Source of the DNA: Dictyostelium discoideum
Taxonomy: Eukaryota
DNA: 64,000 nt
NCBI GenBank assembly: GCA_000004695.1
Contig: CM000151.3
Coordinates: forward strand, 3,584,001 to 3,648,000
Reading direction: 5' to 3'
Shown here: positions 13,027 to 16,000 of the stretch, piece after piece
Layout: each line of letters begins with the position of its first letter
Numbering within the stretch: the first letter of the stretch is position 1
Position numbers and translations under genes: made by a program
The notes under the pieces: model-generated
Databases searched by the model: none
The model's input: the letters and a program-made list of their open reading frames with translations, nothing else
Told to the model about the DNA's origin: nothing

Positions 13027-16000
13027 ATGAAATTATTTGAAAAGATTCAAGTTTTAATTTTAATATTTGTTTCAAATTATTATTTTATAAAATTTTCAAA
13101 TTGTCAAATAATTAATATTTATGATTTATCAAATAATAATTCGTATATTAAACATCCACAATCCACAAATTCCTATGCATGTAAATTCGAGGTTTATTTA
13201 CTTTTCAATGTTAGTCAACAGGATATTGGAAATGACCATTTGGAATTATTTTACAATGATCCAATTGTTACTTTATTAGATGTCCTTGTTTCAAATTCAA
13301 GTATCCTTTCTTTAATGTCATTGCAAGGCGATCCTGGATACATTGGAGTACAAGTTTTTAGTAGATTTTCTTTAAATCATTCAATTAATAACAGTATTAG
13401 CCTTAATTTTATATGTCAAGGTAATCATTTTTATTTTTTCTTTTTTATTTTATTTTTATTTTTATATTTTAAAAAATTACTATTTTACAGATTCTAATAA
13501 AAAAAAAAAAAAAAAAATTTTATTTATTTTTTAGCAATTGATTACACTAAATTGGATTATAAGTTAATGGTTAATAATAGATTTAAAAGATCAACTTCAA
13601 ATTATGGAGGTTATTTACAATTTACTTCAGAATACCCTCTTGGACAATTAGAATATTCAAGTAATACCAGTGGGGTTTTATCAAATACCATCGAGAATAC
13701 TGCAAATCTAGCAGGTGGATCTTTGATGTATAACTTTAGAGATAATTTATCAGTTTCTGTAAATTTTGTAGGAATATATAATAATAGTATCTATATCGAG
13801 TATCCCTCATTATATTATACCAGTATGTATTTATTTTTAATTGTTATTATTATTATTATTATTATTATTATTATTATTATTATTATTATTATTATTATTA
13901 TTATTATTATTATTATTATTATTATTATTATTATTATTATTATTATTATAGTTATTAACTTTTTTTTTAGATATTGATGTAAATTCAAATAATTCAATAG
14001 TAACTATGTATCCAAATCAAGTAACACAATATAATGAATTTGGGTTTGGATGTCCACCTCTTTTTACTATTACAATTAATAGAACAACTGACGAATATCA
14101 ACCATATTTTTATGTTTCTTTAATAAACGGTTTGGGTACTGGTAATATTCAAATCTATCCTTTATATGAAATTAATAAAATGGCAACATATATTGGTATG
14201 TTTGATGGTGCAGTAACTCCATCATATTATACTCTATTTTCTCAATCTGATAATTCTCTTACTGAAATCTATAAAGTTGAAAATTTAACTGTAACCAGTA
14301 AGTTTATTTTTTGAAAAATTAAAAAAAAAAAAAAAAAAAAAAATTAATATTAAAACACACAAACTAATTAATTAATAATTTTAGAATTAAAAAAACAATC
14401 TTTTTCAACTGTTGTTATTGCAACTTATTTACATGGTAATAATGAAACGTTATACAATTCATCAATGTATACAATTTCATTCAATAGTGGTATTTTAAAG
14501 CAGGTTGATTTTTTCCCAACAGTTTATCGTTTCCAATCATCATCATCTGTAATTTTAAATTGGCCATTTGGGTTTGAAAGTGGTCAGAATTTTAATTTCA
14601 ATTTTAAATCATCACATCTACAAAATTTATTTTCAATCAATAGCATAAGCTCATTTACCACCGATAAAAACATTTCAACTACTGTACAATCAGATATAAA
14701 GAGTAATTTTAACAATATTAAAATTAAAAAAATCATTATGATTAATTTTTTAATTTTTACTAATTTATTTATTTTTAATATTTTTTTGAAAATGTAATAG
14801 TAACTCCACAAGAACCATTTAATGTCCAACTTTTAAATTTTGAATTATTTTATCTCTTTAATGATAATTATTTGTTAAGATTTAAAATAAAAAAAAGTTC
14901 ATTTGATTATTTTATAGCACTTAAAGGTTTTTCAAATATTTTAAGGTATGAATCAATTGTAGAAGAAGATAATGAAGTAGTGGTTTTTGAAACAGTTTTT
15001 GACTTTTTTAAAAATTATGGGTTAGGAAATTTTTACATTTTCGATTCATTAAATAGAATGAAAAGTTATTTAGTTAATAATTATTATTCAACGGACCCAC
15101 TTGCAAAATATTCAGAACCATCAGAGAATTTAAATAATTTTTTAATTGAAAATGTATCATTCAAGTATAACTATATCGATGTAACAAATAAATCAGCAAC
15201 AAATGTAATTTACTTTAATTATAATGGTACAATTGATCCAAATAGATTACCTTATTTTTATTTAACTGATACAGTATCCTATAGTGATATTAGTAATATT
15301 CAATATGATTCAATAAGATATGCAATATGGAATTCTACACTTTTAAAATACCAAGTTGAATTTACAATACCAGCAAATATCCAACCTGGTTCAGTTCCTT
15401 ATTTAATAATTTTAAATTATCGTTCAAAATTATCAAGTGAATTCTTACCATTGTCAGCACAATTATTTGTAACATCAGAAAGTAAGTTATTAAATTTCTA
15501 ATAATAATAATAATAATAATAATAATAATAATAATAATAATAATAATAATAATAATAATAATAATAATAATAATAATAATAATAATAATAATAATAATAA
15601 ATTATTACTTTTTTAAAATATCTAAATATCTTATTTTTGTTTTTATTTACTACTATTTAGATTATGATGGATATGGACCAATATTTAGTAATATTGAAAA
15701 GGTTAATTCAACAAATGAATTTGGTTGGAAATTTACAATAGATGATCCAATTAATGGTTTTGATTATGCTGATATTATAGTTAGAGGTGAAATGGATAGT
15801 TCAACTTATAAATTTCATTTAACAACTCAAAATTTAACAAGAGGTGATAAATTTAATGGTGATTATCAAATTAATATCACTATATCAAGTAGATGTGCAT
15901 CTCAAAATTATATTATCACACAAGTTAAATTATATGATACTCAAGGTAATGCTTGTAGATTTTCAGTATCTGAATCATTTAGTGGTGGTATTAGAAATCC

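Follow-up and report, generated by a model that had tools for sequence, protein, structure and literature searches.

We report that a 64,000-nucleotide (nt) stretch of the Dictyostelium discoideum genome (NCBI GenBank assembly GCA_000004695.1, contig CM000151.3, positions 3,584,001 to 3,648,000, forward strand; hereafter the window, in whose coordinates features are given) carries five full-length tandem genes, copies A to E, of the ComC-like EGF-domain family, and that all their introns (22/22) are of phase 1. The introns of copy A separate exons that encode predicted immunoglobulin (Ig)-like modules. The window is strongly AT-rich (GC 16-30%) and the introns are short and AT-rich.

The junctions of copy A (plus strand) were read directly from the letters, all introns having GT..AG ends, and the phases were derived from cumulative exon lengths. 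Exon 1 (13027-13420, 394 nt) begins with the ATG at 13027, encodes the signal peptide and module 1 (amino acids (aa) 1-131 plus the first base of codon 132) and ends with the donor G|GTAATC. It is followed by intron 1 (13421-13534, 114 nt), the position of which, at copy A codon 132, is kept in 10/10 mapped family genes. Module 2 (aa 133-227) is encoded by exon 2 (13535-13822, 288 nt, 96 codons, TTTAG|C ... A|GTATGT), module 3 (aa 229-336) by exon 3 (13971-14297, 327 nt, 109 codons, donor A|GTAAGT) and module 4 (aa 338-442) by exon 4 (14385-14702, 318 nt, 106 codons, donor A|GTAATT). Between them lie intron 2 (13823-13970, 148 nt, GTATGT..TTTAG), which contains a long (TTA)n run and falls in a linker (aa 227-234) of low predicted local distance difference test (pLDDT) score, and intron 3 (14298-14384, 87 nt, GTAAGT..TTTAG), whose position at codon 337 is kept in all mapped genes. 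Intron 4 (14703-14800, 98 nt, GTAATT..AATAG) is located in a predicted linker (aa 438-452) and precedes exon 5 (14801-15481, 681 nt, 227 codons, donor A|GTAAGT), which encodes two modules, 5a (aa ~444-554) and 5b (aa ~556-669). Intron 5 (15482-15660, 179 nt, with (AAT)n) is present in copies A and B and missing from C, D and E. Exon 6 (15661-17879, 2219 nt, stop codon at 17877-17879) has no further introns and encodes the known C-terminal domains, the transmembrane (TM) segment and a short tail. Hence 5/5 copy A introns leave one base pending at each junction, and exons 2 to 5 are symmetric (1-1).

A preliminary description of this locus had placed phase-1 introns at the first four of these sites, and this was borne out with two coordinate corrections: the exon 4 acceptor quoted as 14384 is off by one (AG at 14383-14384, exon start at 14385), and that of exon 5, quoted as ~14805, is off by about four bases (exon start at 14801). 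The other sites were right, and the copy B junction ..ILNIT-A|GTAAGT was confirmed at 25801 on the minus strand. The symmetric exons of ~100 aa that it described are exons 2 to 4, while exon 5 is symmetric but more than twice as long. Some of the introns hold pure trinucleotide microsatellites, i.e. (TTA)n at 13845-13950 in intron 2 and (AAT)n at 15500-15600 in intron 5 of copy A, and a long (ATT)n in intron 5 of copy B (~24400-24500, minus strand). If read through they would give poly-I, poly-N or poly-L, and stop codons cut the frame upstream of the repeats.

The spliced copy A product (1408 aa) is identical over its entire length (100% identity, 100% length) to XP_644336 / EAL70411 of D. 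discoideum AX4, publicly named 'EGF-like domain-containing protein [Dictyostelium discoideum AX4]'; the gene models are already public. Four Pfam matches, all passing the curated gathering scores, were obtained in the order DUF7035 (aa 672-801, E 3.5e-37), DUF7034 (aa 812-927, E 3.3e-28), the EGF-like DUF7949 (aa 1065-1099, E 1.6e-14) and the ComC supersandwich domain, ComC_SSD (aa 1119-1338, E 5.4e-18), followed by a TM helix, the hydrophobic stretch LAGIIIGSVAFAAVVIVSIVYLVV near the C-terminus, and a short tail. Copy A is a bona fide member of the ComC-like EGF-domain family of Dictyostelia. The hydrophobic N-terminus, the C-terminal TM stretch and 35 N-x-S/T sequons indicate that its product is a type I membrane glycoprotein. 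No Pfam match was found within aa 1-670 of copy A. DUF7743 covers module 5a in some relatives; otherwise the ~670 N-terminal residues lie outside the family databases, and the N-terminal 440 aa, beyond every Pfam model, define a sub-family of ~23 representative sequences.

Searching the window with the copy A product (tblastn) identified four further full-length paralogs, all on the minus strand, and one fragment. Copies B to E were modelled from open blocks and the splice consensus. Copy B (22161-26989) has six exons and five phase-1 introns, while C (29046-33571), D (34473-38976) and E (42926-47521) have five exons and four phase-1 introns each. The model of copy C corresponds exactly to XP_644341 / P0002, and the junctions of B and E agree with the other-strain models P0015 and P0012, respectively. 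All paralog introns are GT..AG introns, with an AT content of 0.87-0.96 for most and of 0.78 for intron 4 of C and D.

The 22 introns of the window are not independent observations because the paralogs inherited them, and we therefore mapped the exon structures of relatives and counted positions instead. In seven genes (loci L002-L008) from four other Dictyostelium assemblies 39/40 introns are phase 1, the sole exception being one phase-2 junction in P0017, perhaps a site that has slid or been called wrongly. When the family is aligned, the introns occupy six conserved positions (copy A codons 132, 221-228, 337, 442-445, 553-555 and 670), and for this reason the phase-1 pattern appears to date to the ancestor of the family. 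Phase-1 introns constitute 20.6-34.1% of the introns in ten eukaryotes including the AT-rich Plasmodium, D. discoideum not being among them (PMC1574350, Table 1); with this background from other species, six of six conserved positions being phase 1 has a probability of ~0.002 or less for phase alone. Intron loss within the family seems to have been frequent: the 5a/5b intron is gone in all five D. discoideum copies and the 5b/6 intron in C, D and E, and among the relatives the 5b/6 intron is gone in P0005, P0014 and P0023 and the 4/5a intron in P0014. P0022 has an additional phase-1 intron near the TM region.

The N-terminal part of copy A (residues 1-673) was modelled with AlphaFold2 (AF2) using a 21-sequence alignment (mean pLDDT 71.2, predicted template modelling score 0.66). 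Word-index homolog searches had given five matches and then one, too few for structure prediction, and the homologs were supplied by an exhaustive profile search. An earlier AF2 run on a shallow alignment with per-exon fragments of B, D and E, several of them scattered by MAFFT, reached a mean pLDDT of 43.9 and was not used for conclusions. The model is all-beta, with almost no helix save the signal peptide, and comprises six modules of ~95-115 aa. Modules 1 (aa 29-130, exon 1, pLDDT ~80-90), 2 (aa 139-221, exon 2, pLDDT 53-84), 3 (aa 236-337, exon 3, pLDDT 55-84) and 4 (aa 346-437, exon 4, pLDDT 34-50) have seven strands each, and exon 5 encodes modules 5a (aa 453-546, pLDDT 76-92; DUF7743 in relatives) and 5b (aa 558-666, pLDDT 58-92). 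The best structural matches of the model in the PDB are Ig-like beta-sandwich domains and tandem Ig arrays, and by structure comparison the modelled modules are consistent with an Ig-like beta-sandwich of two sheets and ~7 strands in ~100 aa. With moderate confidence, the N-terminal ectodomain is predicted to be a rod of six all-beta, Ig-like modules. One Ig-like module per exon, as had been proposed, agrees (with the same moderate confidence) with exons 1 to 3 but not with exon 5, which has two modules, and the AF2 model of aa 1-673 gave the expected all-beta modules and Ig-like matches except that the pLDDT of exon 4 stays below 50.

The linkers, i.e. low-confidence or unstructured segments of the AF2 model, were found at aa 131-138, 222-235, 338-345, 438-452, 547-557 and 667-669. 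The introns of copy A, at codons 132, 228, 337, 443 and 670, are all in or at the edges of these linkers, three of the linkers being local confidence minima of the model, and the phase-1 intron that the relatives have at codons 553-555 lies in the 5a/5b linker. As linkers make up ~9% of the residues, all five introns would fall there by chance with a probability of ~1e-5 (a post-hoc estimate).

Searches of copy A (E <= 1) and of 21 family N-termini (E <= 0.1) gave neither a TIG (PF01833) nor an Ig Pfam match; the only TIG match lies in the second, unrelated half of P0004, a fused model. Among PDB sequences the family profile matched nothing at E <= 1. The label IPT-type, used in the preliminary description, is accordingly not supported, and membership in the Tgr / IPT family was rejected, the family being ComC-like and lacking a TIG match. 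The sole strongly conserved features of the N-terminal 670 aa are a PFGFxxGxN motif (aa 397-405, exon 4, 14564-14590, plus strand), which is invariant or nearly so in the 21 aligned family members, and C52 and C130 of module 1, which vary little or not at all across the family. The motif sits in module 4, i.e. the module with pLDDT below 50.

How did this arrangement arise? In animals, Ig, FN3 and EGF exons with a phase-1 intron on either side constitute the class 1-1 modules, which is Patthy's signature of exon shuffling, and domains flanked by introns in animal genomes favour phase 1 (PMC3488318). In the genes studied here the module borders coincide with intron sites, and the exons are symmetric with a shared phase throughout the window and in all but one of the relatives' junctions. 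We lean towards the view that the uniform phase and the linker placement are a frozen relic of the assembly of the ectodomain from 1-1 exons, in genes in which no module swapping is now seen. In the ancestor of the family each of the six N-terminal modules would have been one exon, with short AT-rich phase-1 introns in the inter-module linkers, and everything downstream of the six modules would have been one large exon. The ectodomain would have been built by adding or duplicating module-sized symmetric 1-1 exons, which preserves the frame, and the modules would subsequently have diverged past sequence recognition. Later, the D. discoideum cluster would have lost the 5a/5b intron, and C, D and E additionally the 5b/6 intron. 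Direct results are the splice sites and phases together with their conservation, the congruence of modules and linkers in a moderate-confidence model and the Ig-like structural matches; that the module array was created by exon duplication or insertion would explain most simply why six linkers hold six phase-1 introns, and it concerns the distant past.

Several results weigh against this account. An exhaustive search with a HMMER profile of aa 1-442 against 1.84 billion representative proteins returned only 23 proteins, and nearly all matches span the profile end to end, collinear, and lie N-terminally in proteins that are family-sized (~1370-1425 aa) or in fragments shorter than these, the single internal match being a fused double gene model; thus the modules are not mobile, i.e. 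not found in other proteins or in varying number or order. When the six modules were compared with each other by hhalign, the probability stayed at <= 3% for profiles of 8 sequences and at <= 0.5% for profiles of 21. What is shown for them is a common fold class, and because they have no detectable mutual homology the duplication of one ancestral exon is not demonstrated. With an N-terminal block that is confined to the family and fixed in order, the description of these modules as exon-shuffled is consequently not supported. Moreover, module 4 is not confidently folded, the Ig-like matches were obtained for the whole 1-673 model and are not assignable to particular modules, and the phase background is drawn from published ranges for other species rather than from D. 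discoideum itself. The only non-family neighbour intron that could be mapped, the single intron of an HPS5-like beta-propeller gene (L001 2331-7053; window ~5357-10079, plus strand), is likewise phase 1, which is uninformative by itself (n = 1).

The alternative that survives best, although we consider it clearly less probable than assembly from 1-1 exons, is that the introns were gained later and independently at linker-coding sites of an already assembled gene, the shared phase reflecting an insertion-site or codon preference. Modules without detectable mutual homology would be expected in that case, the phase-1 intron of the neighbouring gene fits as well, and the donors of copy A all follow an A or a G (AAG|GT, CCA|GT, CCA|GT, AGA|GT, AAA|GT), which is compatible with a proto-splice-site preference. 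Yet independent gains would have to account for 6/6 conserved positions being phase 1, at the low probability given above, and for their all lying in linkers, while the C-terminal 740 aa, equally multi-domain, are without introns at domain borders.

It is improbable that the 1-1 layout has been maintained for its function, i.e. for in-frame exon skipping that yields isoforms with fewer modules. Exons 2, 3, 4 and 5 could each be removed without a frameshift, but the free loss of introns (5a/5b in five copies, 5b/6 in C, D and E, 4/5a in P0014) argues against such selection.

The preliminary description had also suggested that the layout explains how N-terminal modules can be swapped between paralogs. 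For an active cassette exchange, in which phase-1 introns would serve as recombination points and the tandem paralogs would still be trading N-terminal modules, symmetric 1-1 exons would preserve the frame after exchange, the paralogs are arranged in tandem, 4-6 kb apart, and their N-terminal halves diverge far more than their C-terminal halves. We nevertheless find such exchange very unlikely, since the five copies are collinear with equal module order and the paralogs rank equally in each of exons 1 to 5, with C and D closest, E next, and A and B distant. Synonymous-site identity tracks this ranking, and per-exon identities among the five copies revealed no exon unusually close to a non-sister copy. 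In these exons A, B, C/D and E are 21-48% identical to each other, E is 37-65% identical to C/D, and C and D are 71-96% identical. The lowest C-D value is that of exon 2 (33062-32763 vs 38497-38201, minus strand; 71% compared to 85-96% in exons 1 and 3-5). A swapped exon was considered here and rejected, as the differences in the nucleotide alignment are confined to an internal patch of ~100 nt, both exon ends being nearly identical. In this patch pN/pS (the ratio of nonsynonymous to synonymous differences) is ~1.5 vs 0.2-0.5 in the C-terminal domains (small counts), a hint that selection on module 2 may be locally relaxed or diversifying.

The only exchange that was detected concerns the 3' exon, i.e. 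A 15661-17879 (plus strand) and B 24397-22161, C ~31570-29046, D ~36610-34473 and E ~45120-42926 (minus strand), parts of which, including the TM segment, are near-identical. Across the five copies the C-terminal blocks are 82-95% (DUF7035), 92-100% (EGF) and 97-99% (ComC_SSD) identical. Because the third-codon positions of conserved residues are near-identical in these blocks as well (93-100%, mostly 95-98%), compared to roughly 50-90% in the N-terminal exons for all pairs but C-D, this exon carries what appears to be the signature of homogenisation by gene conversion rather than that of constraint alone. In A and B this homogenised tract begins, at its 5' edge, ~10 nt past the acceptor of intron 5, and in C, D and E, which lack that intron, the edge falls on the same codon. 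Since the tract is located in an exon without introns and its edge is the same with or without intron 5, the exchange needs no introns and is independent of their phase. The differences among the paralogs are, as judged from these comparisons, best described as old point divergence in the N-terminal modules together with gene conversion in parts of the C-terminal exon, rather than exon swapping, and this mosaic of variable N-terminus and constant C-terminus can be argued to be of greater interest at this locus than the introns.

It is hardly credible that the junctions are mere artefacts of predicted gene models and that the true transcript has others: the copy B call in assembly GCA_054883475.1 has 37 aa fewer than our model (1378 vs 1415 aa) and may splice around a shared in-frame stop, but every intron interrupts an open frame, all are GT..AG and most have an AT content of 0.87-0.96, and the same junctions are found at aligned positions in AX4 RefSeq and in gene models of several other assemblies and species.

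The in-frame stop in copy B, which that assembly also carries, is a TAA (22935-22937, minus strand) where the other copies read CAA (Gln), upstream of ComC_SSD and the TM segment; copy B is probably a pseudogene or the source of a truncated, secreted product. The fragment detected by tblastn is an isolated part of a sixth copy between D and E (40293-40616, minus strand), with 33% identity to copy A aa 577-679, a segment that runs from the last part of module 5b into the beginning of DUF7035. Two database proteins, P0013 (2686 aa) and P0004 (2323 aa), evidently fuse adjacent tandem family genes, and the family thus forms tandem arrays in other species as well. Compared with P0006, P0015, P0009 and P0012, from assemblies labelled D. 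discoideum, copies A, B, C and E differ in 1-17% of the residues per segment. This seems high for alleles, and either these genes may be unusually polymorphic or the assemblies may represent cryptic sister species.

With the animal class 1-1 modules the Dictyostelium genes share domain-sized exons, phase-1 flanks, introns at domain borders, a cell-surface protein and a predicted Ig-like fold. They differ in that the host is an amoebozoan, that the modules are present in no other protein context and are fixed in number and order, and that they have no mutual sequence similarity and match no Ig/TIG profile. A parallel in genomic arrangement is the aggregation factor (AF) cluster of the sponge Amphimedon queenslandica, where 154/155 introns are phase 1 (PMC5400394). 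As in the AF cluster, five similar tandem genes encode large extracellular proteins, nearly all introns (here all) are phase 1, and domains are confined to exon boundaries despite low similarity between domains. In contrast to the Dictyostelium modules, the AF domains are recognisable (Calx-beta, VWA, VWD, Wreath) and often encoded by three exons each, and the domain content differs between AF genes, which was taken as evidence for shuffling (PMC5400394), whereas the Dictyostelium architecture is invariant. The sponge AF is linked to allorecognition; no functional link to it is known for the Dictyostelium genes.

Within the dictyostelids, copy A carries the first four of the domains of the ComC / 'EGF-like domain-containing protein' family (ComC_SSD, DUF7035, DUF7034, DUF7949, DUF8390), and its N-terminal 440 aa are outside all Pfam models. 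Similar to the IPT/TIG adhesion and allorecognition proteins of the Tgr family (TgrB1/TgrC1), we have here dictyostelid type I membrane proteins (as predicted for copy A) with strings of Ig-like-fold modules, gene clusters and variable extracellular parts; the two differ in that copy A and the 21 family N-termini lack an IPT/TIG match and in the C-terminal domain set. In the literature searched we found no earlier report of symmetric phase-1 module exons in Dictyostelium extracellular proteins.

Symmetric phase-1 exons with one extracellular module apiece count as textbook evidence of modular assembly and have been described mainly in animal genes, while dictyostelid multicellularity arose independently of that of animals. 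The same layout, kept across a dictyostelid-specific surface family, provides a useful non-animal comparison for how the evolution of extracellular proteins is tied to intron phase and domain borders. The model moreover offers a first structural reading, a predicted rod of Ig-like modules, for ~670 residues that are mostly beyond the family databases. The practical value is modest, as the gene models are public and there is no evidence for a present-day role of the introns. Finally, we raise the doubtful but wider possibility that the cluster is a diversified surface-receptor system, in which a variable, anciently diverged Ig-like N-terminal array, with hints of relaxed or diversifying selection and with high divergence between strains, would be combined with a constant membrane-proximal part kept nearly identical by gene conversion. 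If this were true, the layout of one module per exon with phase-1 introns throughout would be the substrate on which the architecture could be built, and the locus would be an amoebozoan parallel to the animal Ig-superfamily and sponge aggregation-factor recognition loci, having arisen independently with aggregative multicellularity.

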